Below, piece after piece: positions 4,118-24,323 of a stretch of DNA of 24,323 nucleotides; within the stretch, counting starts at the first letter, position 1, and every line of letters starts with the position of its first letter. The position numbers and the translations under genes are program-made. The stretch is from a virus. Taxonomy: Duplodnaviria; Heunggongvirae; Uroviricota; Caudoviricetes. The notes under the pieces were generated by a model, which did not search any database, was not told the DNA's origin, and worked only from the letters and a program-made list of their open reading frames with translations. The DNA is taken from IMG/VR virus record IMGVR_UViG_2645727563_000003, positions 1 through 24,323 of that record. One strand, written 5' to 3'.

Positions 4118-4244
4118 AACTATTTCCTTAATAGTGAATTAAATATCATTGGGAAACGGTATGTACTTTGTGATTTCCACACATACTGGTTTTTGTTAAT
4201 TAAAATCCGCAGCTTGCTATAAATAACGATAGTGAGCAGAAAAT

Positions 4245-4292
4245 ATGCTAATAGGCTATGTACGCGTATCAACAAATGACCAAAACACTGCT
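4245..4292 (+). pseudogene. cin: 5' remnant of a Cin/Gin/Pin-family serine DNA invertase gene
   Basis: ATG at 4245 encodes MLIGYVRVSTNDQNTA, the characteristic invertase N-terminus; the frame then diverges and stops after 47 codons, with no catalytic domain. Confidence 0.7.
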
Positions 4293-4372
4293 TTACTCAG
4301 ACGCCACCGGAAGGAAAAATACGTATTTGCGGAGAGAATGGACAACCCGCATGGGGGGATGTTCCTCCTCCA

Positions 4373-4588
4373 ACGAAAGAAGAGCTAATGGCTATTGCAG
4401 AAGCCAGGAAATTAAGCTTAAAGGCTCAAGCGGACTCTGAAATCGCCTGGCGATAGGATGCGGTTGATGCCGGTATCGCGACGGATGAGGAAACCGCCGC
4501 GCTTTCTGAATCGAAGAAATGCCGGATCCTGCTGATGCGCGTTGATACAGCAAAACCCGTATGGCCTGTCAATCCGCAGGATATTTAA
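4373..4588 (+). pseudogene. 3' fragment of a tail fibre assembly gene (U'-like), no start, internal TAG
   Basis: Frame 2 encodes ...[64 protein letters not shown], resembling the conserved Tfa C-terminus (lambda Tfa ends ...[27 protein letters not shown], from memory). In-frame stop at 4454-4456. Confidence 0.6.
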
Positions 4589-4802
4589 CGGGGGCGTTGT
4601 AGGTGGTGACATATTCAAGCAGTTCTGTTGGATATGTCACCGTTGCTGCATCTCGCTCTACGTTAAATGTATCCGCTCCCCAGATAACACACTCCCTCAA
4701 AAATGCCTCCACCTCTGGCGAGACTTCAACCGCATCATCAGGTCGCTCTTGTTCAGAAACATAAAAACCAACGGTCGTTGGGCTGAAATACATATTCTCC
4801 AT
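4569..4802 (-). CDS. Truncated tail fibre assembly protein (U-like), N-terminal 77 aa only
   Basis: ATG 2 nt after the fibre stop. [15 protein letters not shown]... is Tfa-like; the ORF ends inside the antisense of the opposite-strand tfa fragment, so 3' ends overlap by 20 bp. Confidence 0.5.
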
Positions 4803-4804
4803 AT

Positions 4805-7800
4805 TTAGTATCCTATTGCTTCAAAATGCAAAGTCGGAATTTCGCCGAGATTGGGTGTCGTATACGACACAGTGAATCGCGTTCTTGATACGTCAGTGCC
4901 AGAATCAGTATCGCGATGCGTTGCCAGTGATTTCCCAGCCATTGATGACTGGGTCGAAAAGCTGTAACTCGCTAGTGTTGCCAGCGTTGCTATTTGTGCA
5001 TTTGGGAATTGTCTGGGGAAATTAACCCTGTAGTAATGGGTGTAGTACGTCACCCCACCAAGCACCTGCGCGTTGAAGTTACCAACTGGTGTCAGTGTCA
5101 CAGTGCCAACCTGTCGAATCATACCATTTGGGAGAATATCCCAGGCAGTTTGTCCGTTTCGCGACATACCAAATGCGGACATGTCCGGGAGTTGATTATT
5201 ACCGGTTCCGACATCCCGTTTTGCCGCTTCTCCCAATTGAAGGTATGCGAGAAGACCAGCAACATCCTTTCCACTCAAATTAGTCAGCGTATTGTCCAGC
5301 GGTTGTTTGCCCGCCAGTGCGCTCTGTACTTCGCTTTTGCTGTAGGCATCCAGATCTTTAGGCGTAAGCGTAATATCCTTCGTGCCGTCAAACGGAACGC
5401 CGTTGATATTCCGTGCAGTCTGTAGTTTTGTGGCAGTTGCAGCATTACCAGTGGTGTTCTGATTACCCGTAGTGTTTACACCTGGAAGATTAATATTGGC
5501 GGAGCCATCGAATGACACGCCGCCTATTGTGCGTGCTGTTTGCAGTTTTGTTGCAGTTGCAGCATTGCCAGTAGTGTTCTGATTACCAGTTGTATTCACA
5601 CCAGGGATGCTGTCTTTTTTAGTATATATCTGAGCCCAGCCCTCTTCGAACCCATAGCCATCACGTGATGAACGGTAATACAATCCACCATTTTTATGGT
5701 GCGCTCGGATTTGGAGAGTCCGACAACTACCTACGCCTGTATAAAAATTTGCAACGATATAAGAATCCCCGGAGCGTGTAACATTATACGCACCTGATTC
5801 GGCATTCCACGGGACCGCACCACTAGTATCGGCATAAGTTCCAGTAGCGCGTAGAGCAAAAGCAGATACATTTTCAGCTGTTAGTGTTATATCAGCAGAA
5901 CCATCAAAAGACACGCCGCTTATTTTTCTAGCAGTTTGCAACTTCGTAGCCGTTGAAGCATTGCCGTTCAAACTACCATTGATGCCGCCAGTAACATCGA
6001 GCCCATTACCGATCGTAACAGCTCCATTGGCATTGTTAATGATAAGCGGCCTTAACCTATTATAGGTTCCCAGGCTGTTACCCGAATCGGTCAACATGAA
6101 ATATGTGTTTGAGCCATCGTTTCGGATAAAGAATCCATAGTTGCCATAGGCAATGCGCAGACCATTCCCCGATTTTGAAATGATCTCACCAGTAGCCGTT
6201 AAACCGCCGTTGAGATTTCCTCCGGTTATTGGTAATGCGCCGACATCCGTGGCGGTCGGTTTAATGTGCGAACTGTAAATGACATATACCGTTCCATCAG
6301 TAAGACCAGTTGGTTTATTCGCTGTATAAGTTGGTGATGTATGAATCGTTACGCTGGCGTTACTGGTATAATCCCATTGAATATTTACACCAGTCGCATA
6401 ATTTCCGATTGCAACGTAAATATCGTAAGTATCACCAGATGTATTGACCCAGGCAAAATTTGTAAACCCTGTCGATGTGCGCTGCCATAAAGCACCAGTA
6501 ATCCCCTTCGGATTACCATTACCTGCACGCAAAACAAGTTCAGATATACCTGCCTGTTGAGGTGACCCCACGTTAAATCCCGCGCCACCAATCAACGTAA
6601 TTGAAACAACAGAACTCGCCTGTGGCATGGTTACCGTTGCTAATTTGAACCAACCAGCACCACCGCTGAATGACATTGTTGTTGAGTTGATCGTGCCTAT
6701 AGACCTTGGAGTTAGCTCAATGTTTTTAGAACCGTCAAACAATACCCCATTTATAGTTCTAGCGGTTTGTAACTTGGTCGCTGTAGCCGCGTTACCGGAT
6801 GTATTCTGATTACCCGCAACGTTAACACCAGGTAAATTAATATTCGCAGTACCATCAAAGCTAACTCCGCCGATAGTTCTTGCCGTCTGTAGTTTTGTAG
6901 CGGTTGCTGCATTGCCAGTTGTATTCTGATTGCCAGTGGCATTCACACCAGGAATGGAGTCCCTTGATGTATATACCTGCGCCCACGCTGACCATGCCGC
7001 ATCAGTGTTATCTCTTCGGGAGCGAATGAAAACCGGCGCATGTGCACCGCTCGTACCACTCCAGCCAATAAGCAACTCGCCCTCACCAGCAGCACTCGCA
7101 CCTTTCATGTGCAATACGTTGCCATACGTGGTCGGGTAGCTATTGTTGTACGCCTCGTACATTTGAATGCCAGCAGTACCCTGAGTAGAGCCACTTAACG
7201 CCGTTACGCGCCCGCGTGATACCAACGTATTGATATTAACGTCCCCTGAACCATCAAATTTAACACCGTTGATGTTTCTTGCCGTCGCAAGTTTTGTCGC
7301 GGTAGCAGCATTCCCGGTGGTGTTCTGGTTACCTGTTGTATTTACACCTGGAAGGTTGATATTGGCCGAGCCATCAAATGCCACACCGCCAATCGTGCGT
7401 GCTGTTTTCAATTTCGTCGCGGTGTCGGCGTTCCCTGTCAGTGCCCCGGTGATCCCGCCGTTGAAAGTCTGGCGTGCACTCCATGTGTTAGCCGTACTCA
7501 ACAGGGGGATCTTTTCACCGCTGGTACCGAGTTCTCTTAAACCAAGGTATTGGATAACGGCCAGTGTGCTTGTTTTAGCCAGAATATCGCGACCGACTGA
7601 CGTTAAATCAGTCTGCGCTACCGTATCCTTACCAGTGAAATAAGGCAGTTTGTTTGCACCAGTCGCAAGGGCAGCGAGCGCGGTTAAAGTTGCATCCAGA
7701 GGCTGTTTGCCTGCCAGCGCATTTGTCATTGTTGTCGCAAAGTTCGGGTCATTGCCCAGTGCTGCTGCAAGCTCATTCAGGGTATCAAGAGCTTCAGGTG

Positions 7801-8905
7801 ATGAGCCGACCAATGCAGAGATAGCAGCTCTTACATAAGCGGTCGTAGCAATCTGCGTGTTATTCGTACCCTGTGCAGCGGTAGGCGCAGTAGGTATTCC
7901 CGTTAATGCAGGACTTGCTAAAGGAGCTTTAAGAGCCAGAGCATTGTTGATAGTTGTGCTGAAATTCGGGTCGTTATTGATCGCAGCCGCTATTTCTTTA
8001 AGCGTATCCAGTGTGCCAGGTGCACCGTTGATAAGTGCCGTTATAGCTGCCTTAACAAAGGCTGTATTTGCGATCTGCGTGCTGTTTGTACCTTGCGCTG
8101 CCGTCGGCGCGGTTGGCGTTCCTGTCAGACTCGGGCTTTCTATTGGCGCTTTGGTATCAGCCAGCTCTTTTACAGACTTAACGGCTTTAGGGGTAGCCGC
8201 CATTGTTTCGCTGTCGCTGTTAGTTGCGCTACTGAGCTGAACTAATCCCTTTTGTGTTGTGCTTGCATCCTGCGCCGTATACTTGCTTTTAGCCAGATCG
8301 TAGGCTTTTTTAACCGCCAGCGAACTTGCAGCGACATCACTTCTGGTACTGGTTACAGAGTCGGAAATTTCAATGCCTATCGCGAGATCGATGCGGTCGG
8401 ATACATCTATCATTTCCTTAGTAATAGCAGATACGCCAGCAGGGATATTCACCGTACAAACAAGCAGTTCCCCATCTCCTAACTGATATGAATCGGTATA
8501 GGTTCTGGCAACAAATTCAGCCGCATGAATATGTGACGCGGTATTAACCTGATAAGAATCTTCTCCAAGGAGGTATCTTCCCTTCAGCACAATTGCATAT
8601 TTCTTACCTGCGCTAAGTGCAAGAGAAATATCCTTACGCTGCTGAATAGTTACCTGGTAGAATTCACCAATATTCACTGACGCCGCGCCAGCGGTTTTAT
8701 CACCATCCACTGAGGTGATTAACAGGTTCATCCCACCGCCAGGCTTAGGAAAAAAACCGGCATAAAATCCAGGGTCAACAATTCCCCTGAATTTTCGGTT
8801 TAGCGCGGCTGACAGATATGGTTCGTGGTATTGCACATCAGCCACCAGAGCCAACGACTCGGGTGATGGGTAAGTAACCGATGTGACAACTGTAACGTCA
8901 TTCAT
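4805..8905 (-). CDS. Tail fibre protein (S-like) with collagen-like repeats
   Basis: Start chosen at ATG 8905 (MNDVTVVTSVTYPSPE...), AAGGA 10 nt upstream, 11 nt after upstream stop; the longest ORF extends to 8992 but overlaps the upstream gene. At least seven ~40-aa repeats (PGVNTTGNQNTTGNAATATKLQTARTIGGVSFDGSANINL) and two ~75-aa N-terminal modules. Confidence 0.8.
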   Translation of the reverse strand: MNDVTVVTSVTYPSPESLALVADVQYHEPYLSAALNRKFRGIVDPGFYAGFFPKPGGGMNLLITSVDGDKTAGAASVNIGEFYQVTIQQRKDISLALSAGKKYAIVLKGRYLLGEDSYQVNTASHIHAAEFVARTYTDSYQLGDGELLVCTVNIPAGVSAITKEMIDVSDRIDLAIGIEISDSVTSTRSDVAASSLAVKKAYDLAKSKYTAQDASTTQKGLVQLSSATNSDSETMAATPKAVKSVKELADTKAPIESPSLTGTPTAPTAAQGTNSTQIANTAFVKAAITALINGAPGTLDTLKEIAAAINNDPNFSTTINNALALKAPLASPALTGIPTAPTAAQGTNNTQIATTAYVRAAISALVGSSPEALDTLNELAAALGNDPNFATTMTNALAGKQPLDATLTALAALATGANKLPYFTGKDTVAQTDLTSVGRDILAKTSTLAVIQYLGLRELGTSGEKIPLLSTANTWSARQTFNGGITGALTGNADTATKLKTARTIGGVAFDGSANINLPGVNTTGNQNTTGNAATATKLATARNINGVKFDGSGDVNINTLVSRGRVTALSGSTQGTAGIQMYEAYNNSYPTTYGNVLHMKGASAAGEGELLIGWSGTSGAHAPVFIRSRRDNTDAAWSAWAQVYTSRDSIPGVNATGNQNTTGNAATATKLQTARTIGGVSFDGTANINLPGVNVAGNQNTSGNAATATKLQTARTINGVLFDGSKNIELTPRSIGTINSTTMSFSGGAGWFKLATVTMPQASSVVSITLIGGAGFNVGSPQQAGISELVLRAGNGNPKGITGALWQRTSTGFTNFAWVNTSGDTYDIYVAIGNYATGVNIQWDYTSNASVTIHTSPTYTANKPTGLTDGTVYVIYSSHIKPTATDVGALPITGGNLNGGLTATGEIISKSGNGLRIAYGNYGFFIRNDGSNTYFMLTDSGNSLGTYNRLRPLIINNANGAVTIGNGLDVTGGINGSLNGNASTATKLQTARKISGVSFDGSADITLTAENVSAFALRATGTYADTSGAVPWNAESGAYNVTRSGDSYIVANFYTGVGSCRTLQIRAHHKNGGLYYRSSRDGYGFEEGWAQIYTKKDSIPGVNTTGNQNTTGNAATATKLQTARTIGGVSFDGSANINLPGVNTTGNQNTTGNAATATKLQTARNINGVPFDGTKDITLTPKDLDAYSKSEVQSALAGKQPLDNTLTNLSGKDVAGLLAYLQLGEAAKRDVGTGNNQLPDMSAFGMSRNGQTAWDILPNGMIRQVGTVTLTPVGNFNAQVLGGVTYYTHYYRVNFPRQFPNAQIATLATLASYSFSTQSSMAGKSLATHRDTDSGTDVSRTRFTVSYTTPNLGEIPTLHFEAIGY
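5425..7375 (-). repeat. Interspersed near-identical 120-240 bp coding repeats inside the tail fibre gene
   Basis: Copies at about 5425-5665, 5935-6025, 6715-6955 and 7255-7375 encode the 40-aa repeat; they also generate the long spurious plus-strand ORFs here. Confidence 0.7.
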
Positions 8906-8916
8906 CAAGCATATCC

Positions 8917-9351
8917 TTATGCTGTAGTCGTGTTTATGGCCATAACTGCGGTATATGTTTTGCCCACATACAGCGAGTCTTCCTGGACACAAATAATGGC
9001 GATTGGCTTGTTCTCGTTATCCAGAACAACCAGAGTGTTGAATGGGTAGTTTTTCCCTTTCTGCAACTGGCTTTGATCAAGGTCCATTCGGACAGTAATT
9101 ATCCCGCCTGAGTAGGTTGGGACGAGGTTGATGGTGCAAAATTTACTGGTCAGTTCTGCCAGCTCGAAAGCCTTTGGCAGTTCTCCAATCTCATAAGTGC
9201 CATCTCCTTTCTTAGTAACCAGTGAACTGGTACCGAAAACGGCCTTGCTGATTAAAAATCGAGAGCCTTTGTTAATGGACGATTCAGCGCGCCGCTGATA
9301 GTAATAGTCCAACAACTGACTCTTATAGAGGTTTGTTGAGACGTCAGACAT
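8917..9351 (-). CDS. Tail/baseplate-associated protein (R position by synteny)
   Basis: 144-aa ORF directly upstream of the fibre gene in the same operon; no motif recognised. Confidence 0.55.
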   Translation of the reverse strand: MSDVSTNLYKSQLLDYYYQRRAESSINKGSRFLISKAVFGTSSLVTKKGDGTYEIGELPKAFELAELTSKFCTINLVPTYSGGIITVRMDLDQSQLQKGKNYPFNTLVVLDNENKPIAIICVQEDSLYVGKTYTAVMAINTTTA

Positions 9352-11699: not shown

Positions 11700-12055
11700 A
11701 GCACCACGTCCTGTGTGATAGTTATATCCCTGATACGAATGGATATTTTCAACTTATCAAAAGCATCTCCCTCGGCTACTGACAAGCCAGAAATCGGTAT
11801 GTCGGGTAAATCTACCGTCAGTTTTTGCAAAAGCATTGCCTCAACCGCAATTTGAACATGCGACAAGTTGGTCGGTTCGTGTTTAAACTGCGGTAAAACA
11901 TTGCCCCATGACGGATCTCCGTATACCTCACCCTGATAAGTGTTTAGCCACTCATATAAACGAGCGCCCCAGGCCTCCTCCTGGGACTCATACGTTTTTA
12001 CGCCGGATAACTCCAGCGTCAGCAAAGGATCAATTTCGTTATTGTTGGCCATCAA
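11696..12055 (-). CDS. Small baseplate/morphogenesis protein (PmgA position by synteny)
   Basis: 119-aa ORF, 4-nt overlap with the tape measure gene stop. Confidence 0.55.
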   Translation of the reverse strand: MMANNNEIDPLLTLELSGVKTYESQEEAWGARLYEWLNTYQGEVYGDPSWGNVLPQFKHEPTNLSHVQIAVEAMLLQKLTVDLPDIPISGLSVAEGDAFDKLKISIRIRDITITQDVVL

Positions 12056-15000
12056 TCAACTCTCGCGTAGTCATTCATCAACGGATCATCAATTGACAGT
12101 GGCACCGTGCGCATAACGCCCGGTTGAGGCGTGCTGACCTTTACGACAGTTCCCTGGCCTTTCGCCGAGTCTTTAGTGTGCTCTTCAATCCTGGCAAGCA
12201 ATGAGGTCATCTGCGCAAACAGCCGCTTCGTTTCACCATCAAGTGAAACGGTATTATCAGCCAACTGCATTGTCGGCTTGGCACCGGAGCCGCCAAGGTC
12301 ACTAATAACCTGTCCGTCTATCTGCATACGACCGGTTGGTTGCTGCAAATCGTTGGCGGCAGTCGTCACCTGGGACGTGGAGGCTGGTTCAGGCGCATTA
12401 TTTTTCCGCATCCCCGGCGAGTTGCGGAGTTTATCAAATAGTCCATCAATCCCCATTTGTGCGCCGAGTTGGTCAAAGTAACTTGAATTGCTGGCCACCG
12501 GACGTGCCTCTTCAACTGGCATAGGTGTATCAACATACACATTGCCAGCTGCCGTTGCGGTCCCCTTCCCTCGTGCACGTTCTTCGAGCGTTCCCTGAAC
12601 GACTTCCCGACGCATACCCCGGCCATTCATGAATTTGTTGACCAGATCATTCACCCCCGTAAGTTCACCAATCCGGTCTACTAATCCCCCTTTTTCAAAC
12701 GGATTTTCGCCAGGGGTAAACGCCAGGCCCGTAGACTGATCAACAAAGGCGTTTTCCGGAAGGTTATCCATTCTAGGGGATTGGCTGCCTTGTTGCTGTC
12801 TTTGTTGCTGTCTCCCCCCTTGTGAACCCGCCCCGGGGGTATAAATATCACCACCTAAATAGCGAGCACGATGAGTATTGACCTTAATCGCATACTCGCG
12901 GTTTTCCTTCGATAATTCACCGGTGCCTTTTTTCCACTTATTAATAGTGCCAAACCCGGCGTTATATGCAGTGATGGCCTCGTTCCAATCTCCCTTTGCT
13001 TGTTTCAAATAATTGCTCATGAGAAGAGCAGCAGCTTCTGCCGATTTTTCTGGATTAAAAGAATCTTCCCGAGATAATCCAGTTTCCTTACGGGCAATGT
13101 CCGTAAACTGAAACATCCCGAGCGCACCACCACTCTTTTTCCCATTAACCCATCTTAACTGGGATACTGCATTTGGATTACCATTTGATTCAGTGGCTGC
13201 TATCGCATAAAGAGTACCTTCAGGAAGGCCATACTTTTTCTCAAGTTCAGCAAAATATGGAGCCAACTTATCGAGATTTGCCTTACCTTCAGCGCCAAGA
13301 CTTCCGACTTTTACATCCAAGTTGCCATTGTTGTAGGTATCCGCAGCTTTCTGAATGTCATTCCTGGTGCCAGTGGTATTAAGCGACGATGATGACGAGC
13401 TATTTTGACCAATAGCTTTATCAATTTTCTGCAACGCGCTATTGCCCGTTTCTACGGCATTTGCATTGATTATCTGATTGGCAGTTTCTTTAACTGTTTT
13501 ATTGCTATCTTTCGCCGTATCTAGGGATGCATTTACAACACGAGTGACAATATTAGCCTTTTTAGAGGTATATTCAGTCTTAGGAGCATTGTCCTCCTGA
13601 CGTTCTTTAGCAGGTGTTTTTAATTCAGGTGTAACCTCTTTCGCATCCGCTTTATTGACTAGCTTTGATGCAACCCAGGCCACTGGGGTGCTCTGAACAG
13701 CGGCATCTGCAACCTCACCTGAAAGCTCTTTTGCGGCACTCCATAGATTACTGCCAGCTTCTTTAATGTATTTCCCTGGGTTCTTAATGAAATCAATTGC
13801 ACTATCAATTGCATCACTGAAAACCTGTTTCAGGTTATCGACAGTAAAGAAGTCTTTGATGGCGTCTAATTTTTCGTTCAGACTCTTGGTTGTGTCACTG
13901 AACCAGGCTGAAATAGCATCGCCAATCTTGGCTGTGTAATCGTTGAATGTTGTGGATATGGTGTCACCAAGGTTAGAAATATATGTTTCTAAGTTGGTAA
14001 TCCCACTATCAATGGCCTGAGCAATACTTTCCGTCGAAAATGATTGCAACATATTGCCGATATCCTCAAATCCAAGTGATTTGAGAACCTCACCAATGGC
14101 GCTGCTAATACCAGATACCAGTCCCCCCATATCGAGAACGTTAGCCAGTGTATAAGCCGCTTTTTGCTGAAAAGATGGATCTTCCCCATCCTTAAGCCCA
14201 AAGGTCCGACGTTGTGCTTCTGTATCATTCCAACCGGTTACCGCATCATAGATACCTCCAGCCACCGTGCCGACTAGCGGAATTGCGCGTAAAGCCCCCT
14301 TTGCAAGAGCCTTAACACCTAGTTTCCCCAATCCCTTAGTTGCAAGTTTTCCGGCACCGCGAGTAGCCAATTCGCCAGCTTCTTTGGCAGCAGCTTTTTT
14401 CCCACCAAAGCCCAATAAGCTTGCAACTTTTTTTATACCTAAAGCGCCTAGTGCCATCGAGCCAACTTTCTTTAGTACCCCACGGCCAAAAATAAGGGAA
14501 GCAATACCACCGGCCCCCTTCCCTAACAGGCTAAATAGTTTGGACAGCAAGCCGCCCTTCTTTTTCCCGGTGTTTTTGGCTATCTGATCAAGGGCGCTGA
14601 GAATCTTGTCATTGCCCTCTTTAATTTCGCTGGTCTGCTCCTGAAGTTCCTGAACCGTCCGTTTTTGGGTGTTAACCTGAACGACATCGGCACTATTTTG
14701 CGATTTACGCCTAAAAAAACCTTTTCTACGGCTGTTATCGTCATTGCCACGAATCACATCGGCAATAGACTTTCTGGCACCATTAAGCGATCCACCAACT
14801 TCTTTTGATATCCCGCCAAGCTCCTTCCCTGCTGCCCACAATGGACCAGCAACGGCATAACCTAACGCATCGACGGCACGAGTCTCTGAAGGGTTACCTA
14901 TGCCTTCAGCTACTTTTGACAGTTTTTTTAATAAACCTGATTCAGCATTTAGACGCTCATCATCCTCTTTGCGCCTGGCCTTTTCAGCACGTTCAGCACG

Positions 15001-15801
15001 GGCATCTTCCGCTGCGGCCTTACTCCCTGACTTTCCAATAAAACGACCACGCGCATCGCGTTGGTTTTGGCTTTTTTGCGCACCGCCTTTTTGATCGAAC
15101 ATTTCGCGAGCGTGTTCGGCTGCTTCGGTCCGTTGTGCCTTTATATCCTCTGGTATAGCCTTCCTGCGTCGTTTTTTACCCTTTGGTGTAGTTGATTTGG
15201 CCTGCTGTTCCTGTTGAGCAATGCCCTCCTGAACTACACGAGAAACGTCCCCTAAATTAAGCCGTTTCATTGCGTCAACAATAGGGTCTACTGATGGCGC
15301 ATTGGCCACAAAGTCTGGCCGGGAATTTTCGATTGTTCGATTTAATGCCGACACACTGCGAGATACTGGGTCAACCGTTGCAACGCGTTCCCCTTTCAAA
15401 TCACGAGCGAGTTTGACCGTTTCTAACCGCTGTGCTTTAACATCCTCTGTTATTGCCTCTCTTCGTCTATTTGGGGGATTGTGCGCTGTTGGTGCAGCCT
15501 GCTGTGCACGGTTAGTGACTTTGTCCTCCCGTATACGAGAAACGTCCCCTAAATTAAGCCGTTTTATTGCGTCAACAATAGGGTCCACTGATGGCGCATT
15601 GGTCACAAAGTCAGGACGTGAATTTTCGATTGTGCGATTTAATGCCGACACACTGCGAGAGACAGGATCAACAGTTGCAACTCGTTCCCCTTTCAAATCT
15701 TCAACAGCTTCCCGAATACCTGCAAGCTCTTCCAGCTCTTTCGCGCTGGCGGTTTCAACTGTCCTTATAACATCGTCAATATTGGCGTTTTTTCTTTCCA
15801 T
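12052..15801 (-). CDS. sit: Tape measure protein with lytic transglycosylase (SLT) domain, Sit-like
   Basis: 1249-aa ORF. Gly/Ala/Lys-rich hydrophobic block typical of tape measures; SLT-like motif LPEGTLYAIAATESNGNPNAVS...GALGMFQF; internal ~99-aa tandem duplication near the N-terminus. Confidence 0.75.
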   Translation of the reverse strand: MERKNANIDDVIRTVETASAKELEELAGIREAVEDLKGERVATVDPVSRSVSALNRTIENSRPDFVTNAPSVDPIVDAIKRLNLGDVSRIREDKVTNRAQQAAPTAHNPPNRRREAITEDVKAQRLETVKLARDLKGERVATVDPVSRSVSALNRTIENSRPDFVANAPSVDPIVDAMKRLNLGDVSRVVQEGIAQQEQQAKSTTPKGKKRRRKAIPEDIKAQRTEAAEHAREMFDQKGGAQKSQNQRDARGRFIGKSGSKAAAEDARAERAEKARRKEDDERLNAESGLLKKLSKVAEGIGNPSETRAVDALGYAVAGPLWAAGKELGGISKEVGGSLNGARKSIADVIRGNDDNSRRKGFFRRKSQNSADVVQVNTQKRTVQELQEQTSEIKEGNDKILSALDQIAKNTGKKKGGLLSKLFSLLGKGAGGIASLIFGRGVLKKVGSMALGALGIKKVASLLGFGGKKAAAKEAGELATRGAGKLATKGLGKLGVKALAKGALRAIPLVGTVAGGIYDAVTGWNDTEAQRRTFGLKDGEDPSFQQKAAYTLANVLDMGGLVSGISSAIGEVLKSLGFEDIGNMLQSFSTESIAQAIDSGITNLETYISNLGDTISTTFNDYTAKIGDAISAWFSDTTKSLNEKLDAIKDFFTVDNLKQVFSDAIDSAIDFIKNPGKYIKEAGSNLWSAAKELSGEVADAAVQSTPVAWVASKLVNKADAKEVTPELKTPAKERQEDNAPKTEYTSKKANIVTRVVNASLDTAKDSNKTVKETANQIINANAVETGNSALQKIDKAIGQNSSSSSSLNTTGTRNDIQKAADTYNNGNLDVKVGSLGAEGKANLDKLAPYFAELEKKYGLPEGTLYAIAATESNGNPNAVSQLRWVNGKKSGGALGMFQFTDIARKETGLSREDSFNPEKSAEAAALLMSNYLKQAKGDWNEAITAYNAGFGTINKWKKGTGELSKENREYAIKVNTHRARYLGGDIYTPGAGSQGGRQQQRQQQGSQSPRMDNLPENAFVDQSTGLAFTPGENPFEKGGLVDRIGELTGVNDLVNKFMNGRGMRREVVQGTLEERARGKGTATAAGNVYVDTPMPVEEARPVASNSSYFDQLGAQMGIDGLFDKLRNSPGMRKNNAPEPASTSQVTTAANDLQQPTGRMQIDGQVISDLGGSGAKPTMQLADNTVSLDGETKRLFAQMTSLLARIEEHTKDSAKGQGTVVKVSTPQPGVMRTVPLSIDDPLMNDYARVD
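15232..15707 (-). repeat. Tandem direct duplication (297-bp period) inside the tape measure gene
   Basis: Two ~165-180-bp copies starting near 15232 and 15529, by eye well over 90% identical, both encoding LKGERVATVDPVSRSVSALNRTIENSRPDFV.NAPSVDPIVDA.KRLNLGDVSR. Confidence 0.8.
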
Positions 15802-18047: not shown

Positions 18048-18587
18048 CTACCACCAACTGCTAGCTTTCTTCTCTCTAGCTTTTCCTTCGCTTTGCAGTA
18101 AATCTTTACTTCCTGTAGAAATATTTCTATTTGCATCAGCCTCAGACTGAATTACATCTGTCTTAGCTGCTCTCTCCTTCAACTCCTGCTCTATAAAATC
18201 GTTTTCTCGCTGGACACGAGCCGCTTTTGCTTGCAGTTCGAGTTTCATGCTTTCGAGTTGCAGCTTGCGAAGCTCATCCTCATAAGCTTGATCTCGCTTC
18301 TTGTCATTTGCTAGCTCGGCTTCTCGTTTCGCTCTACGTTCATTTTCTGCAGCAACACGCTGTTTTTCGCGTGCAGCAGCGGCAGATGCTGCTTTTTCTC
18401 TTCTAATACGTTCAGCTTGTGCTTGTTGGCGAATAAGTTCTTTTCTGGCATCCTCAGCTTGCTGCTCTTTAGCTCGCCCTTCATTTTCCGCTTGAGCAAT
18501 AGCAGCAATTTGACTTTGCAACGAGTTAGCCAAGGCAGTGCCTACACTAAACGTAGAAAAGATTAGAAATAAAATAATTTTATTCAT
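18048..18587 (-). CDS. Secreted, highly charged coiled-coil protein (TolA-like repeat character)
   Basis: 179-aa ORF; signal peptide MNKIILFLIFSTFSVGTALA then Ala/Glu/Lys/Arg/Gln-rich helix. Visibly lower GC than the tail genes. Confidence 0.65.
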   Translation of the reverse strand: MNKIILFLIFSTFSVGTALANSLQSQIAAIAQAENEGRAKEQQAEDARKELIRQQAQAERIRREKAASAAAAREKQRVAAENERRAKREAELANDKKRDQAYEDELRKLQLESMKLELQAKAARVQRENDFIEQELKERAAKTDVIQSEADANRNISTGSKDLLQSEGKAREKKASSWW

Positions 18588-18590
18588 AAA

Positions 18591-19112
18591 TTATTTCTTT
18601 TCTGGACAAGTAGCATTTGGCTGAATTCGAGTTTCATTATCTTTAGTTGAAATAAGCACAGCAAGCCCCGTTGTAAACTGGCATGCTTTACCAACTTGAG
18701 TTGAAGTGAACACCTTAGTTCCTTCTTTATAAGTCAGTGAAACACCTTCAACAATTGTTTTATCACTAACCAAAGAACCAGCCGCTGCACCAAGAGCCGC
18801 ACCACCAGTACCGCCAGCTACAGCACCCAGTGTCGATGTGCCTTTAACATTATAACCGGCAACGCCCCCAGCAACAGCTCCCAGTACCGCACCAAATGTC
18901 TGTGCCGCTTCTTTATTAGCTTTATTATCAACTTTCACTTTAGCTGGAAGCACAGAGATAATATTGACTGTCTTTGTTTCCTGCTTCGAATTCAATTGAG
19001 CGGTATCATAAACATCGGCAGCATAATCAGCACCGCTAGATTGACACCCAGAAAGAAGAATTGCAGATACAACAAGAGCGCATAAAGTATACTTTTTAGA
19101 CATAAGAATCAT
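18591..19112 (-). CDS. Lipoprotein with glycine-zipper motif
   Basis: 173-aa ORF; lipobox LSGC after a hydrophobic leader, then GAVLGAVAGGVAGY...GAVAGGTGGAALGAAAGS. Start may be the ATG at 19103 instead. Low GC. Confidence 0.65.
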   Translation of the reverse strand: MILMSKKYTLCALVVSAILLSGCQSSGADYAADVYDTAQLNSKQETKTVNIISVLPAKVKVDNKANKEAAQTFGAVLGAVAGGVAGYNVKGTSTLGAVAGGTGGAALGAAAGSLVSDKTIVEGVSLTYKEGTKVFTSTQVGKACQFTTGLAVLISTKDNETRIQPNATCPEKK

Positions 19113-19393
19113 CCCAGAAAAACAAAAACCGGCGAGAAGTTACCACGAGAACGGAAAGTAAACAAGAATACTCCCATTGACTTATATCAATTAATCAACT
19201 TTTTATAAGCTATCCCTAACTTATTGTGTATAGCTGAAAAGTCAGAGACAAGTTCACCATCTGCATTATTTCTTAAGTTAATAGTTTATTGCTAACTTAA
19301 TTTATGTATCGACTATTGATATCCATCTTAAAGTTACAATATCCCTCTGCATTATTTTTCATCACAAATAATATATCTATTGCACGACACTAA

Positions 19394-19410
19394 TCTGCTC
19401 TAATAAATTT
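19394..19410 (+). promoter_or_regulatory. C1-type repressor operator candidate upstream of the c4/icd/ant unit
   Basis: tctgctctaataaattt matches the recalled P1 C1 operator consensus ATTGCTCTAATAAATTT at 15/17. Confidence 0.55.
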
Positions 19411-19448
19411 GTATTTTTAAGTCGCGAATGCTATCTTTTTGCATCATA

Positions 19449-19477
19449 TTGACCTTTTAATCGTTCAGGCTTATAGT
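19449..19477 (+). promoter_or_regulatory. Sigma70-like promoter candidate for the c4/icd/ant transcript
   Basis: TTGACC (19449-19454), 17-bp spacer, TATAGT (19472-19477), in an AT-rich intergenic region. Confidence 0.4.
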
Positions 19478-19589
19478 TTCGCCGTCGTAGCAAATTCTGC
19501 GACCGGGTTTAGCAGCCTGAATGATTGTGCGGACAGCCGCAGATATCCGATATTGCGGTATTTTTGTGTCCGTAAAACCGCGTTACGCC

Positions 19590-19700
19590 CAAATTATGGT
19601 GGGGCGTGATGGGGAGGCTTCGGCCTGCTGGTTTCACAATCGCCAGTCTGCTAACCCCGTCACGTCCTGCCACCTGTTTAGCAGCGGGTAGCAGGTTGTT
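19590..19700 (+). ncRNA. c4: Candidate c4-like antisense regulatory RNA in the ant leader
   Basis: About 450 nt of GC-rich non-coding leader with stem-loops; ctgctaa (19648-19654) is complementary to gtttagcagc, present at 19487-19496 and 19677-19686. Boundaries approximate. Confidence 0.35.
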
Positions 19701-19724
19701 AAACCTGATTGTGAGGCCGTAACT

Positions 19725-19946
19725 ATGGTTAATGCCAATCCTTGCGCACGCCAAGAATTCATCTGGCGTTTCTATTCCTGCAAAAAACACCACTATCACT
19801 TCGTCATCGCAGCAACAGAAGACGAAGCACGCTCTCAATTGCCTGATGGCCCCTGCATTTTTACTGCCCGTTTTTCAACTAACTCGCGCAATTCACTTAG
19901 TTACTGGAACCTCCCCTTCTCTGCCGACGTTCAGGGGGTTTTATGA
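19725..19946 (+). CDS. icd: Small ORF translationally coupled to ant1 (icd-like position)
   Basis: 73-aa ORF, GAGG about 9 nt upstream; its TGA overlaps the ant1 ATG (ATGA at 19943-19946). Identity by position only. Confidence 0.4.
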   Translation: MVNANPCARQEFIWRFYSCKKHHYHFVIAATEDEARSQLPDGPCIFTARFSTNSRNSLSYWNLPFSADVQGVL

Positions 19947-20986
19947 AAAAACCTCTCGTCACCCGTAATGACATAGCCGAAGCGATCGCCCTGCATACTG
20001 CCTGTATGCCGACACGGGAGATCCCCGGCGCAATTGCCAACTATTTCATGATAACCAGACGTTTTTATACCCGAACAGATAAGGCTGTGATCAACAGGCT
20101 ACTGATAGCCGAGATCAGGGATTATTTGATTGAACAAGGACGTCTACGTTACGCAACGGTGGCAGCAGAAATGAGAAAGGAGGCACATAGAATGACCAGT
20201 AATAATTTGAATGTTAAAAAACCAGCATCTGTTGCTTCAGCTACGCCATCACCAGCTGTGAATGTTATCTCCAACACTGGAGACACAATCGACAGCCAGA
20301 CGCTGTTAAAGATGGTCAATGAAGCGCGTAAGTTATGTGGGGAACCAGAGGTTCGGAACAACAAATTCATCAAAAAAATACTCGACGAATTAGAAGGTGA
20401 GGACGGTTACACAAAAAGTGCAACCGTGCCGCCAGGTGGCGGTACGCCTATGGTTGTCATAACCATGACCTACAAACAAGCCCTGCGAGTCGCCGCGCGC
20501 GAGTCAAAAGCAGTCCGCCGTTCGCTGATCGACAAACTGGAAGAATTGCAGCAGGCAAACTCCCCTGCCCCATCGATCCCCCAAACATTACCAGACGCTC
20601 TACGCCTGGCTGCCGAGTTGGCAGAACAGAAAATGCAGTTGGAACAACAGCTGGTGGCCGCAGCCCCTAAAGTCGATTTTGCCGACCGGGTATCAGCGGC
20701 TAATGGAATCCTGATCGGGAACTTTGCAAAGGTCGTTGGACTTAAGCAAAACGCCCTTTTCTCATGGTTGCGCCAGAACGGCATTCTCATGGCTTTTGGT
20801 GCGCGCAAAAACGTACCGCGCCAGCAGTACATTAACGCCGGGTATTTCACGGTGAAAGAAGTGGTGCTGGATGATGAAAATGGCTACCAGATACGGCTGA
20901 CGCCCCAATTAACGGGTAAAGGCCAGCAGTGGTTAACTCGCAAGCTACTTGATGCTGGTTTGTTAAAACCAGTAGCAATAGGTTAA
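19943..20986 (+). CDS. ant1: Antirepressor Ant1 (long form) with KilA-C/ANT-type C-terminal domain
   Basis: 347-aa ORF; the C-terminal ~125 aa are ~65% identical to the C-terminus of the next gene (ALRLAAELAEQK...TGKGQQWL...LLDAG). Confidence 0.7.
   Translation: MKKPLVTRNDIAEAIALHTACMPTREIPGAIANYFMITRRFYTRTDKAVINRLLIAEIRDYLIEQGRLRYATVAAEMRKEAHRMTSNNLNVKKPASVASATPSPAVNVISNTGDTIDSQTLLKMVNEARKLCGEPEVRNNKFIKKILDELEGEDGYTKSATVPPGGGTPMVVITMTYKQALRVAARESKAVRRSLIDKLEELQQANSPAPSIPQTLPDALRLAAELAEQKMQLEQQLVAAAPKVDFADRVSAANGILIGNFAKVVGLKQNALFSWLRQNGILMAFGARKNVPRQQYINAGYFTVKEVVLDDENGYQIRLTPQLTGKGQQWLTRKLLDAGLLKPVAIG
20192..20986 (+). CDS. ant2: Antirepressor Ant2 (in-frame internal start within ant1)
   Basis: In-frame ATG at 20192 preceded by AAGGAGG (20177-20183) with 8-nt spacer; would give a 264-aa product starting MTSNNLNVKK. 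Confidence 0.5.
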   Translation: MTSNNLNVKKPASVASATPSPAVNVISNTGDTIDSQTLLKMVNEARKLCGEPEVRNNKFIKKILDELEGEDGYTKSATVPPGGGTPMVVITMTYKQALRVAARESKAVRRSLIDKLEELQQANSPAPSIPQTLPDALRLAAELAEQKMQLEQQLVAAAPKVDFADRVSAANGILIGNFAKVVGLKQNALFSWLRQNGILMAFGARKNVPRQQYINAGYFTVKEVVLDDENGYQIRLTPQLTGKGQQWLTRKLLDAGLLKPVAIG

Positions 20987-20998
20987 CAAAAGAAAAAA

Positions 20999-21023
20999 CC
21001 TGCCAGCAAACTGGCAGGTTTCT
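20999..21023 (+). terminator. Rho-independent terminator after ant
   Basis: cctgccag-caaa-ctggcagg followed by tttct, 13 nt after the ant stop. Confidence 0.7.
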
Positions 21024-21063
21024 GAGCAGATCGACCACCCCGATCTGGATCGAGTCAGAAAAA

Positions 21064-21080
21064 TTTGCTCTAATAAATTT
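21064..21080 (+). promoter_or_regulatory. C1-type repressor operator candidate upstream of kilA/repL
   Basis: tttgctctaataaattt matches the recalled consensus at 16/17; about 23 of the 27 bp from the core onward are shared with the copy at 19396. Confidence 0.6.
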
Positions 21081-21149
21081 CGTTTTCTAAGTGCAAAGAA
21101 TCACCATTTCGAGCTGGTGATTGAAGGTTGATGCAAATTTGGAGAAAAA

Positions 21150-21950
21150 ATGCAACAAACATTCAATGCGGATATGAATATATCAAACCTTCATCAAAAT
21201 GTCGATCCTTCAACCACTCTGCCCGTTATTTGTGGTGTTGAAATTACGACCGACCGCGCTGGCCGTTACAACCTTAATGCTCTACACAGAGCGAGCGGAC
21301 TCGGTGCCCATAAAGCGCCAGCTCAATGGCTAAGAACGCTGTCAGCCAAACAGCTCATCGAAGAGCTTGAAAAAGAAACTATGCAGAATTGCATAGTTTC
21401 GTTCGAAGGCCGTGGCGGCGGTACGTTTGCCCATGAATTGCTCGCTGTGGAGTACGCAGGCTGGATTTCTCCCGCGTTTCGGCTGAAGGTAAACCAGACA
21501 TTTATCGACTATCGAGCCGGAAGATTGCAACCTGCTATTCCGCAGAGTCTCCCTGAAGCTCTCCGTTTGGCTGCCGACCTGGCAGAGCAAAAGCAACGGC
21601 TGGAGCAAAAAATGCTTATGGATGCGCCTAAAGTCGAATTCGCCGAACGCGTTGCTACCGCCAGCGGGGTTCTAATCGGCAACTATGCCAAAGTGCTCGG
21701 CCTGGGCCAAAACTATCTCTTCACCTGGTTGCGTGATAACGGAATTCTGATCGCAACCGGTGAACGCAGGAACGTCCCCAAACAAGAATACATATCCCGT
21801 GGGTACTTCACCCTCAAAGAAACCGTGATCGATACAAGCAACGGAAGCAGGATTTCTTTCACGACTCGTATAACCGGCAAAGGTCAGCAGTGGCTAATGA
21901 AGCGATTGCTTGATGCTGGTGTGCTGGTACCTGTCGCGGCTACGCGCTAA
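21150..21950 (+). CDS. kilA: KilA-N domain protein with KilA-C/ANT C-terminal domain (KilA-like)
   Basis: 266-aa ORF; N-terminus RYNLNALHRASG...FEGRGGGTFAHELLAVEYAGWISPAFRLKV fits the KilA-N pattern; C-terminus paralogous to Ant. Confidence 0.7.
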   Translation: MQQTFNADMNISNLHQNVDPSTTLPVICGVEITTDRAGRYNLNALHRASGLGAHKAPAQWLRTLSAKQLIEELEKETMQNCIVSFEGRGGGTFAHELLAVEYAGWISPAFRLKVNQTFIDYRAGRLQPAIPQSLPEALRLAADLAEQKQRLEQKMLMDAPKVEFAERVATASGVLIGNYAKVLGLGQNYLFTWLRDNGILIATGERRNVPKQEYISRGYFTLKETVIDTSNGSRISFTTRITGKGQQWLMKRLLDAGVLVPVAATR

Positions 21951-21979
21951 CAGACGTAGTAAGAACCACCAGCATTGTA

Positions 21980-22825
21980 ATGCTGGCTAAAGTCACTTTC
22001 CTGAGCTGTATAACGATGAGCGATTTTACTTTTTCTGGCTATGAATTGGCCTGCTTTGTAACACACTCCGGTCTATCCCGTAGCGCCGGGCATATCCTGT
22101 CGCAATGTGCAAATCTCGCGGCAACAACCAGTGAATACTTCATTCACAAGCCTCACCGCATGATCGCGGCAGAAACTGGTTATAGCCAATCAACCGTCGT
22201 TCGTGCATTCCGTGAAGCTGTAAACAAAGGAATTCTGTCTGTAGAGATTGTTATCGGCGATCACCGTGAACGTCGCGCTAACCTGTACCGGTTTACACCA
22301 TCCTTTTTGGCCTTCGCACAACAAGCCAAAAATGCGCTGATTGAAAGCAAATTAAAGATCTCTTCAGCGGCAACCAAGGTTAAAGCTGTTCTCGCTAAGA
22401 CATTGGCTTTATTTAATTTTTTATCCACACCCCCATGTCAAAATGATACCCCCTCCCCCTGTCAGGATGACGTGGCAATAAAGAATAAGAAGTCACAAGT
22501 TAAAAAAACAAAAAGATCAGTTTCCGGCGGTGCCGGAACGACCAGACTCAAAAAATTGACTTCATGGATCGCTGAGGCAAAAGCAAAGGCTGACAATCTG
22601 CGGTTATCCAAAAAGCGCGCTCAAAAACATGAGTTCAAGCAGAAGGTAGAGGCGGCAGCGCGGAAATATGCTTACCTGAAGAACAAGCGTTCTCCTGATA
22701 TTGGCGGGGTATCAAACTTCGATAATCTGCCGCATTGCATGACGGTAAACGAAGCTCTTAATGCGGTATTAGCCAAAAATAAAGATAACGAACAATGGGG
22801 TATACCGGTAGGATTCAGAGGGTGA
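21980..22825 (+). CDS. repL: HTH DNA-binding protein, RepL-like (lytic replication initiator position)
   Basis: 281-aa ORF, 30 nt after kilA stop; HTH-like MIAAETGYSQSTVVRAFREAVNKGILS; basic C-terminus. Alternative start ATG 22016 (MSDFTF...); neither has a clear SD. Confidence 0.6.
   Translation: MLAKVTFLSCITMSDFTFSGYELACFVTHSGLSRSAGHILSQCANLAATTSEYFIHKPHRMIAAETGYSQSTVVRAFREAVNKGILSVEIVIGDHRERRANLYRFTPSFLAFAQQAKNALIESKLKISSAATKVKAVLAKTLALFNFLSTPPCQNDTPSPCQDDVAIKNKKSQVKKTKRSVSGGAGTTRLKKLTSWIAEAKAKADNLRLSKKRAQKHEFKQKVEAAARKYAYLKNKRSPDIGGVSNFDNLPHCMTVNEALNAVLAKNKDNEQWGIPVGFRG
22429..22470. repeat. C-tract direct repeats with flanking A-rich tract inside the repL-like gene; candidate origin element
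   Basis: acccccatgtcaaaatga and ccccctgtcaggatga are adjacent imperfect direct repeats, followed by an A-rich tract at about 22490-22515. Confidence 0.3.
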
Positions 22826-22828
22826 TAG

Positions 22829-22845
22829 ATTGCTCTAATTATAAC
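22829..22845 (+). promoter_or_regulatory. Weaker C1-operator-like half match upstream of the AT-rich operon
   Basis: attgctctaattataac matches the first 11 consensus positions exactly (12/17 overall); lies 3 nt after the repL-like stop. Confidence 0.35.
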
Positions 22846-22993
22846 CATGCATACTTTCAACACCTCTAGTTTGCCATGAGGAAAACTCATAGGCGTCCTG
22901 GTAAGATGACGTAGTTAGCAAATCAGAACGTCCCATTATTGCAATTAATAAACAACTAACGGACAATTCTACCTAACAATAAGTGGAGTTAAC

Positions 22994-23698
22994 ATGTTGA
23001 ACCGAAGAACATTTAATGTATTCTGCGATGAATCCTGTCACCTACTAAATGATCATAATAAAGTCATGGTATTGGGTGCGCTTTGGTGTCCTGGCACTAT
23101 CACAAAAAAAATTGCTAGAGACATCAAGGGATTAAAATTAAAACACAATTTAAAACCTGATTTCGAAATCAAGTGGACTAAAGTATCTGCGTCCAAAGTT
23201 GAATTTTACTTAGAGGTCGTAGATTACTTCTTCAGCAACCCAGCATTGCGCTTTAGAGGTGTTGTTGTTCCTGATAAAGAGCAACTGGACCATGCTCGAT
23301 TCCATCAAGATCACAATACTTTCTATTATAAGATGTTTTTTTATGTCTTAAAAAACATAATAGAAAGTAACAACACATACAATATCTACCTAGATATAAA
23401 AGATACTTTAGGTATTGAAAAAATTGAGAAATTAAGAGGAGTTCTTCACAATGATCGCTATGATTACAATCATGAGTCGATAAACAGAATTCAACATATA
23501 CGATCTCATGAAGTGCAACAATTGCAGCTAACGGATCTTTTCATTGGTGCGTTAGGCTACGTTCATCGAGGAATGAATAGCAACGCGGGAAAAATCCAAG
23601 TCATAAACAGGATAAAATCACATACAAACAGGGAGTTACTAAAAAGCACTCTTCCAACAGAAAGTAAATTTAATATTTTCGTGTGGGAGGCTCGCTGA
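22994..23698 (+). CDS. Hypothetical protein, possibly DUF3800-like (N-terminal FCDES motif), first gene of AT-rich operon
   Basis: 234-aa ORF, AAGTGGAG upstream of ATG. AT-rich codons unlike flanking genes. Motifs NVFCDESCH, EIKW, SHEVQQLQLTDLFIGALGY; family assignment from memory only. Confidence 0.7.
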   Translation: MLNRRTFNVFCDESCHLLNDHNKVMVLGALWCPGTITKKIARDIKGLKLKHNLKPDFEIKWTKVSASKVEFYLEVVDYFFSNPALRFRGVVVPDKEQLDHARFHQDHNTFYYKMFFYVLKNIIESNNTYNIYLDIKDTLGIEKIEKLRGVLHNDRYDYNHESINRIQHIRSHEVQQLQLTDLFIGALGYVHRGMNSNAGKIQVINRIKSHTNRELLKSTLPTESKFNIFVWEAR

Positions 23699-24162
23699 TG
23701 CTTCAAATGCCAGATTTATTGTACTTCAATGGAAGTTGGCAAGAGTATATAGACGATGTATATGATGTTGTTAGAGAAGATATTTTAATCTCTAATATAA
23801 CGTTTAAGGGTCTCCCTGTTCGATTACGTTATTCACCGGAATATGATGGGAAAGAGTTCGGATTTTGGCATTTAGTATCAGAGGGAAAAATAGAAGAAGA
23901 ACGAATACCTGATCTTGAACGGTGTAAGCGGATCCGCTGGATCGCGCATATGATAAGGAATTATGACCATTGCGATATATCATGTTGGTCTGAAAGACGA
24001 GGACCAACTGAAGAGTGGGTAATCTGGAACGAGTGTGAAAACTACGTTGTTGTGCTATCCGCACGTAGAGACTATTGGCTTCTCAAAACAGCCTATGTTG
24101 TAACCTATGACAGTAAAATCAGAACACTCAAACAAAGCAGAAAAAGAGCACTTGGGACATAA
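23698..24162 (+). CDS. Hypothetical protein, second gene of AT-rich operon
   Basis: Start ATG 23698 overlaps the upstream stop (TGATG), GGGAGG 8 nt upstream; the track's longer ORF begins at GTG 23683. 154 aa, Cys/His cluster CKRIRWIAHMIRNYDHCDISCW, no family recognised. Confidence 0.65.
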   Translation: MLQMPDLLYFNGSWQEYIDDVYDVVREDILISNITFKGLPVRLRYSPEYDGKEFGFWHLVSEGKIEEERIPDLERCKRIRWIAHMIRNYDHCDISCWSERRGPTEEWVIWNECENYVVVLSARRDYWLLKTAYVVTYDSKIRTLKQSRKRALGT

Positions 24163-24170
24163 AAAAGCTG

Positions 24171-24200
24171 AACCCGACACATATTGCTATGTATCGGGTT
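24171..24200 (+). terminator. Hairpin after the AT-rich operon (weak terminator candidate)
   Basis: aacccgaca - 12-nt loop - tatcgggtt, 9 nt after the stop; no clear T-run follows. Confidence 0.3.
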
Positions 24201-24323
24201 CGATCGCTCTTTCTACGCATGGTAGATGAGTAAGGTAAATCTAACCGATCTACTTTAGCTTTTCAATAGCTAGCTATAACTTTCCGCACATATTCTTCTG
24301 ATAATTCCAGTATGGCGGTTGGG

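Follow-up and report, generated by a model that had tools for sequence, protein, structure and literature searches.

Three C1 operator motifs in the immunity and lytic-replicon region of a P7-like phage-plasmid

Does a single repressor govern immunity, lytic replication and possibly an accessory operon in a P1-like element? The question is raised by three copies of a 17-base-pair (bp) motif in a 24,323-nucleotide stretch of the IMG/VR virus record IMGVR_UViG_2645727563_000003 (Caudoviricetes). We call this whole stretch the window, and all positions are window coordinates unless another record is named. A first-pass annotation, made from the letters alone, had likened the motif to the operator consensus of the phage P1 repressor C1, ATTGCTCTAATAAATTT. 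It had also placed one copy ahead of each of three plus-strand transcription units. A sequence search found all three 17-mers exactly, on the plus strand, where they had been claimed.

19394..19410, plus strand: Op51, or Op(c4), C1 operator of P7 type, TCTGCTCTAATAAATTT; identical to P7 Op(c4), orthologous to P1 Oc4; 18.6 bits
21064..21080, plus strand: Op53, or Op(rep), C1 operator, TTTGCTCTAATAAATTT; identical in P1 and P7; 25.4 bits
22829..22845, plus strand: Op55, or Op(rap) or Orlf, weaker C1 operator, ATTGCTCTAATTATAAC; identical to P1 Orlf and P7 Op(rap); 16.2 bits

We conclude, with a probability of about 0.93, that the three motifs are the C1 operators Op51, Op53 and Op55 in a P7-type phage-plasmid, C1 binding being taken from the literature and the existing annotation. 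Maps of the dispersed C1 operators of P1 and P7, these three included, date back to the late 1980s. The sites are already known in the biology of these phages and are not a discovery.

The assignment is carried by identity with catalogued sites. The consensus ATTGCTCTAATAAATTT agrees with the published one for C1 operators; for P1, 22 C1 sites are cited (PMC8546580). In the P1 record (GenBank AF234172; Lobocka et al. 2004, cited in PMC8546580) the sites are protein_bind features for 'phage repressor C1', named Oc4 (Op51), OrepL (Op53) and Orlf (Op55). The P7 record (GenBank AF503408), with 21 annotated C1 operators, lists them as Op(c4), Op(rep) and Op(rap). In three-way alignments the 17-mers of the window fell base for base within the annotated features, and all three were identical to those of P7.

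The match to the consensus is uneven. Op51 and Op53 agree with ATTGCTCTAATAAATTT at 15/17 and 16/17 positions (two mismatches and one), Op55 at 12/17. The five mismatches of Op55 are confined to its final six bases; the 11 before them match perfectly. A search of the window with up to three mismatches returned two matches, against 0.15 expected, and missed Op55 because of these five mismatches. We also scored the window with a weight matrix trained on the 18 other annotated P7 operators, these three being left out. The resulting scores, listed above, are all inside the range spanned by annotated P7 operators (13.5–28.2 bits), and the next best site on either strand of the window reached 8.9 bits. 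In 300 dinucleotide-preserving shuffles of the window, sites of at least 16 bits occurred at a mean of 0.063 per shuffle, and 17 shuffles had any.

Scanned across the whole of P7 (101.7 kb), the matrix returned annotated operators at all of its 20 top-scoring sites. The motif was not equally frequent in unrelated regions: nothing in the 91 kb of phage D6 scored above 12.7 bits. Hence, it is specific to genomes using C1 as repressor. D6 is usually grouped with the P1-like plasmid prophages, and its 'C1-like' repressor, of 345 amino acids, differs from C1. Because D6 has a different, longer repressor and lacks P1-type operators, its immunity must use different sites. In P7, the top unannotated operator-like site was ATTGCTATAATTATTTG (P7 record 1485–1501; 15.8 bits), directly upstream of c8. 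The matrix scan of both strands of the window found no fourth operator, for example no equivalent of P7 Op(lydC), since that stretch is replaced in the window.

Each site precedes a plus-strand unit, as had been proposed: the c4 RNA, icd and ant1-2 for Op51, kilA and repL for Op53, rlfA and rlfB for Op55. All three are co-directional with the unit downstream. C1, encoded outside the window, would bind each asymmetric 17-bp site in this orientation. We infer C1 binding and repression at these sites from the literature and the annotation; the analysis of the window adds the promoter geometry. The coordinates of P51a, P53, P53as and PrlfA were transferred from the P1 annotation and then checked in the window sequence or by a promoter scan. 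Around Op51 the relevant features are the following.

19408..19437, plus strand: P51a (P2c4), −35 TTTGTAT at 19408–19414, overlapping the 3' end of Op51, −10 TATCTT at 19432–19437; transferred from P1, checked
19449..19477, plus strand: P51b (P1c4), TTGACC-17-TATAGT, stronger-looking, downstream of Op51 and not covered by it; promoter scan and P1 annotation
19471..19523, plus strand: a1/b1 target of the C4 antisense RNA; Rfam RF03163, 54.6 bits
19592..19677, plus strand: c4 antisense RNA, P7 specificity type; Rfam RF01695, 69.6 bits

Since Op51 overlaps the −35 element of P51a, C1 bound there would silence this upstream promoter of c4-icd-ant. The uncovered P51b would keep producing the C4 antisense RNA, and translation of the antirepressor would thereby be blocked. 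We compared the site with a sample of 80 IMG/VR loci recovered with RepL. Positions 4–17 of Op51 were unchanged in 61 of the 62 related loci in which it was compared. Across the same 62 loci, positions 1–3 were variable (AAT, TCT, CCT, AGT, TTC) and the 25 bp upstream were highly polymorphic.

The c4 RNA and its a1/b1 and a2/b2 targets (19471–19677) carry the recognition bases of P7 and not those of P1, as in TTTAGCAG versus TTTGACAG, so immI specificity of the P7 type and heteroimmunity to P1 are expected. The homology between P1 and P7 breaks inside Op51, at position 2–3 (window 19396). Upstream of this point P1 has simABC, while the window and P7 have two membrane/lipoprotein genes, which is why homology to P1 starts only at 19396. 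In the window these genes, at 18048–19112, are the P7-type upf50.5 (a weak TraT-like lipoprotein match) and upf50.0 (DUF5384), not P1 simABC. Directly upstream of Op51, ATTGCACGACACTAATC (19381–19397) resembles an interrupted operator core (ATTGCAC...CTAAT) and scores poorly; it may be a decayed second operator or a chance resemblance.

Two promoters are placed at or near Op53.

21046..21074, plus strand: P53 (PkilA), −35 TGGATC at 21046–21051, −10 TCTAAT at 21069–21074, inside Op53; transferred from P1, checked
21177..21205, minus strand: P53as (PaskilA), antisense, TCGACA-17-TATATT; promoter scan and P1 annotation

As the −10 element of P53 lies inside Op53, bound C1 would exclude RNA polymerase. 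This agrees with the report that C1 bound at the overlapping Op53 represses promoter P53 (PMC9948254). In the lysogen, C1 at Op53 would thus prevent expression of kilA and of repL, the gene for lytic replication. The site read TTTGCTCTAATAAATTT in 77 of 79 related loci. GATC sites occur at 21029, 21042 and 21048, and the −35 element of P53 includes a Dam site. Promoter elements are therefore overlapped by Op51 (−35 of P51a) and by Op53 (−10 of P53); Op55 overlaps no convincing one.

The idea of a single repressor over immunity, lytic replication and possibly the cargo genes is accordingly supported for Op51 and Op53 by the annotation, and for Op53 also by PMC9948254. For the third site the 'possibly' was apt, the role there being taken from annotation only. 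Op55 begins 3 bp past the stop codon of repL and ends 148 bp before the start codon of rlfA.

22939..22967, plus strand: PrlfA, predicted promoter (TTGCAA ... GACAAT); P1 annotation (a prediction only), checked in sequence
22994..23698, plus strand: rlfA, or rapA (DUF3800); Pfam DUF3800, PADLOC PDC-M04A 2e-95 (2.2e-95)
23698..24162, plus strand: rlfB, or rapB, with the start as in the P1 and P7 annotation (open frame from 23683); PADLOC PDC-M04B 1e-51 (1.1e-51), phrog_16230

Several observations weigh against the view that C1 acts at all three sites of this element. No c1 homologue was found in the window by tblastn, so we infer that this element has the repressor. In the P7 record, c1 lies at 100,091–100,942, about 45 kb from these sites, and C1 is 98–100% identical across every close relative that has them. 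The other observations concern Op55. It matches the consensus at only 12/17 positions and is without the T-rich flank described below. It ends 94 bp upstream of the −35 element of the predicted PrlfA and does not overlap this promoter. Of 77 related loci, only 13 have its P1/P7 form. The remaining 64 lose homology after ATTGCTCTAAT and read on as CTGGAGTCACC..., such that only the first 11 bases are shared. The alternative 17-mer at this locus, ATTGCTCTAATCTGGAG, scores 5.7 bits.

The point at which relatives diverge is the edge of a replaceable cassette. Comparison of P7 with phi456, RCS47 and SJ46 places the cassette from operator position 12 to just past bplB; within the window it takes up 22840–24323. 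Hence, bases 12–17 of Op55 belong to the rlfAB cassette. In P1, P7 and the window it contains rlfA-rlfB-pmgF; the phi456-like version has a small membrane open reading frame (ORF) and a Hok/Gef toxin (Pfam 2e-22). PMC6906374 counts the region after repL among the recurrently variable ones and treats rlf as low-GC DNA acquired recently. RCS47 has an IS605-family element inserted further inside the alternative cassette. We considered this insertion sequence (IS) as the cause of the breakpoint at position 11 in RCS47-like relatives and rejected it: the junction CTGGAGTCACCTGGCGTTTTCAG is found in the 64 loci, mostly without an IS, and the IS lies further in.

These features could be explained otherwise, with Op51 and Op53 real and Op55 an irrelevant 11-bp core remnant at the cassette joint, rlfAB being expressed from their own promoter independently of C1. 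The 11 shared bases and the low score of ATTGCTCTAATCTGGAG, the missing flank and the predicted promoter some 94 bp downstream would all follow, as would the low GC of a cassette that PMC6906374 regards as recently acquired. The matches of rlfA and rlfB to PDC-M04A/B point the same way, since C1-independent expression is expected of a prophage defence active in the lysogen. We nevertheless consider this explanation unlikely. The annotators of both P1 and P7 list a C1-controlled operator here, with the historical name 'Op55', and its 16.2 bits are within the annotated range. In a P1vir time course, rlfA and rlfB group with the early lytic replication genes (bioRxiv 10.64898/2025.12.28.696737), which fits C1 control. 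Moreover, the terminator scan returned no plus-strand terminator between repL and rlfA, so a roadblock would have something to block.

We thus retain Op55 as a C1 operator, with a qualification. Given its poorer match, its position off the predicted rlfA promoter and its truncation in most relatives, its regulatory role rests on annotation. The promoter scan and a check of the sequence found no convincing promoter hexamers overlapping it. An operator-like sequence at the predicted PrlfA, ATTGCAATTAATAAA (22938–22954), was rejected as it fails the invariant positions 7, 9 and 11. If functional, Op55 would most likely be a roadblock to read-through from kilA-repL, or an auxiliary C1 site. The early lytic grouping of rlfA and rlfB in P1vir fits either of these roles.

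The similarity between Op51 and Op53 extends beyond the 17-mer. The figure of 23 of 27 identical positions from the core onward is exact when counted from TGCTC; in the preceding 40 bp the two are unrelated (13/40 identical). The shared TTTnTAAGT block is real, and at both sites it starts at operator position 21.

19414..19422, plus strand: T-rich flank of Op51, TTTTTAAGT, operator positions 21–29; sequence
21084..21092, plus strand: T-rich flank of Op53, TTTCTAAGT, operator positions 21–29; sequence

This flank is a general feature of the operators, derived empirically in this analysis and additional to the published definition. In the 18 other P7 operators, positions 19–25 are 66% T and the rest of the flanks 28% (binomial p about 3e-18), and T25 is often followed by A. 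D6 was tried first as a test set and was unsuitable because it has no P1-type operators, and Cronobacter phage JK004 was used. Its C1 is only 76% identical and the flanks have largely diverged. JK004 has 19 sites of at least 14 bits, with 60% T at positions 19–25 (p about 2e-14). The T count at these positions is 6/7 for Op51, 5/7 for Op53 and 2/7 for Op55. The tract is present at most annotated operators; it is missing at Op55, at a few other sites and in the bivalent ban operator, in each of its halves.

Relative to P51a the TTTnTAAGT block falls within the spacer; relative to P53 it comes after the −10 hexamer. We rejected it as a −10 element placed 17 bp after a TTGCTC '−35', because its sixth position is not T and its register follows the operator, not the promoter. 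Being in register with the operator and not with the promoters, and lacking a fit to a −10 element, the block would be part of the interaction of the repressor (or a corepressor) with DNA, or reflect DNA shape, instead of being promoter sequence. The textbook 17-mer consensus may then be too short. One could go further and propose a bipartite C1 element of about 26–29 bp, made of the 17-mer and a phased T-tract at positions 19–25, with Op55 being an 11-bp joint for cassette exchange (rlfAB/PDC-M04 versus Hok) and not a classical operator. The break between P1 and P7 inside Op51 would then suggest that modules can be bounded by operator cores too. We think this combined proposal quite doubtful.

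That the motif copies are chance matches or generic AT-rich promoter sequence is extremely improbable: the intergenic DNA around the sites is indeed AT-rich, TCTAAT within the motif also serves as the −10 hexamer of P53 and 17/300 shuffles yield one site of at least 16 bits, but three sites are observed where 0.063 are expected per window, they match named P1 and P7 operators exactly, the motif is confined in P7 to annotated operator positions, and it occurs 19 times in the diverged JK004, which has a C1 homologue, while being absent from D6, which has a different repressor.

The surroundings of the sites are those of a P1-like element. In gene order, the c4 RNA and a1/b1 target are followed by icd, ant1/ant2, kilA and repL, and then by the low-GC rlfA-rlfB pair.

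19725..19946, plus strand: icd, cell division inhibitor; ORF orthologous to P1/P7 icd, phrog_1426
19943..20986, plus strand: ant1 with in-frame ant2, antirepressor; Pfam ANT/KilAC 5e-31, P1/P7 annotation
20994..21023, no strand assigned: hairpin with a 13-bp stem between ant and kilA, probably a terminator; terminator scan
21150..21950, plus strand: kilA; Pfam KilA-N plus ANT
21980..22825, plus strand: repL, lytic replication initiator, containing oriL; phrog_2418 3e-157, P1/P7 annotation

The GC content of rlfA and rlfB is 0.32–0.38. Both were non-essential for P1 plaque formation in a CRISPR interference (CRISPRi) screen. Judged by their sequence, they are a candidate anti-phage defence pair. 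Since Rfam motifs associated with DUF3800 exist, we sought a structured RNA in the rlfA leader, and no Rfam match was obtained at E ≤ 1.

Positions 18500–24323 share 98% identity with phage P7, and equally with JL22, a P1-like phage-plasmid; identity to P1 is 96.6% from 19396 on. Over its full length the window matches, in mosaic fashion, the segment of P1-like elements that runs darA-lyd / tail fibre / baseplate / sit / tub / immI / lytic-replicon. Its best whole-window matches among phages and plasmids are mosaics at 97–98% identity. These alignments place the window in the P1 phage-plasmid group, as a P7-like element.

Further differences from P7 are found far from the operators. Of the invertase gene cin, no more than the first ~20 codons are left (MLIGYVRVSTNDQNTALL..., from about 4245), and 4120–8992 lacks both the invertible C-segment and the Op(lydC) site of P7. 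A single tail-fibre ORF of 1395 amino acids (4805–8992, minus strand) stands in place of the switchable S/S' arrangement. Comparable losses are reported in other P1-like plasmids (PMC6906374). The sit-like ORF (12052–15801) has 1249 amino acids versus about 1130 in P7. Its centre (12814–14302) is only 85–88% identical to P7, with gaps, and its flanks are 96–97% identical; this pattern indicates a mosaic replacement within the injection transglycosylase gene.

The P1-like phage-plasmid group spreads resistance genes in Enterobacteriaceae. As a discovery the operators carry little weight, the C1 operators of P1 and P7 being already annotated in GenBank. The value lies in annotation: the window is fixed as the immI and lytic-replicon region of a P1-like phage-plasmid of P7 immunity type, and the switch elements Op51, Op53, c4 and P53 are intact in it. 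The residual novelty is modest and comprises the extended T-rich flank, the cassette joint within Op55 and rlfAB as a defence candidate. These observations could refine the prediction of C1 sites and of which accessory genes of P1-like elements fall under immunity control.

How do these arrangements compare with known systems? For the cargo pair the counterpart is PDC-M04. Both component models are matched strongly, and the genes are adjacent and in the same order as rlfA/rlfB. PDC-M04 is itself a candidate defence system only, and P1 annotates rlfA and rlfB as 'possibly associated with lytic replication'. The regulatory logic resembles that of lambdoid CI/Cro, where a prophage repressor likewise occludes early lytic promoters through sites overlapping the −35 or −10 element. 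The lambda operators, however, are palindromes bound by dimers and grouped in a single immunity region, whereas C1 sites are asymmetric 17-mers scattered singly. P1 has the same loci, promoters (P51a/P51b, P53, P53as) and downstream genes, and its Op53 and Op55 are identical to those of the window. Its Op51 starts with AAT where that of the window starts with TCT, and its c4 specificity differs. P7 has the same three 17-mers, placed identically with respect to c4, kilA and rapA, the same upstream neighbours (upf50.5/upf50.0) and the same P7-type c4 specificity. Between P7 and the window the sites are without differences, and the flanks show a few substitutions, for example at 19424, 19444 and 21034.

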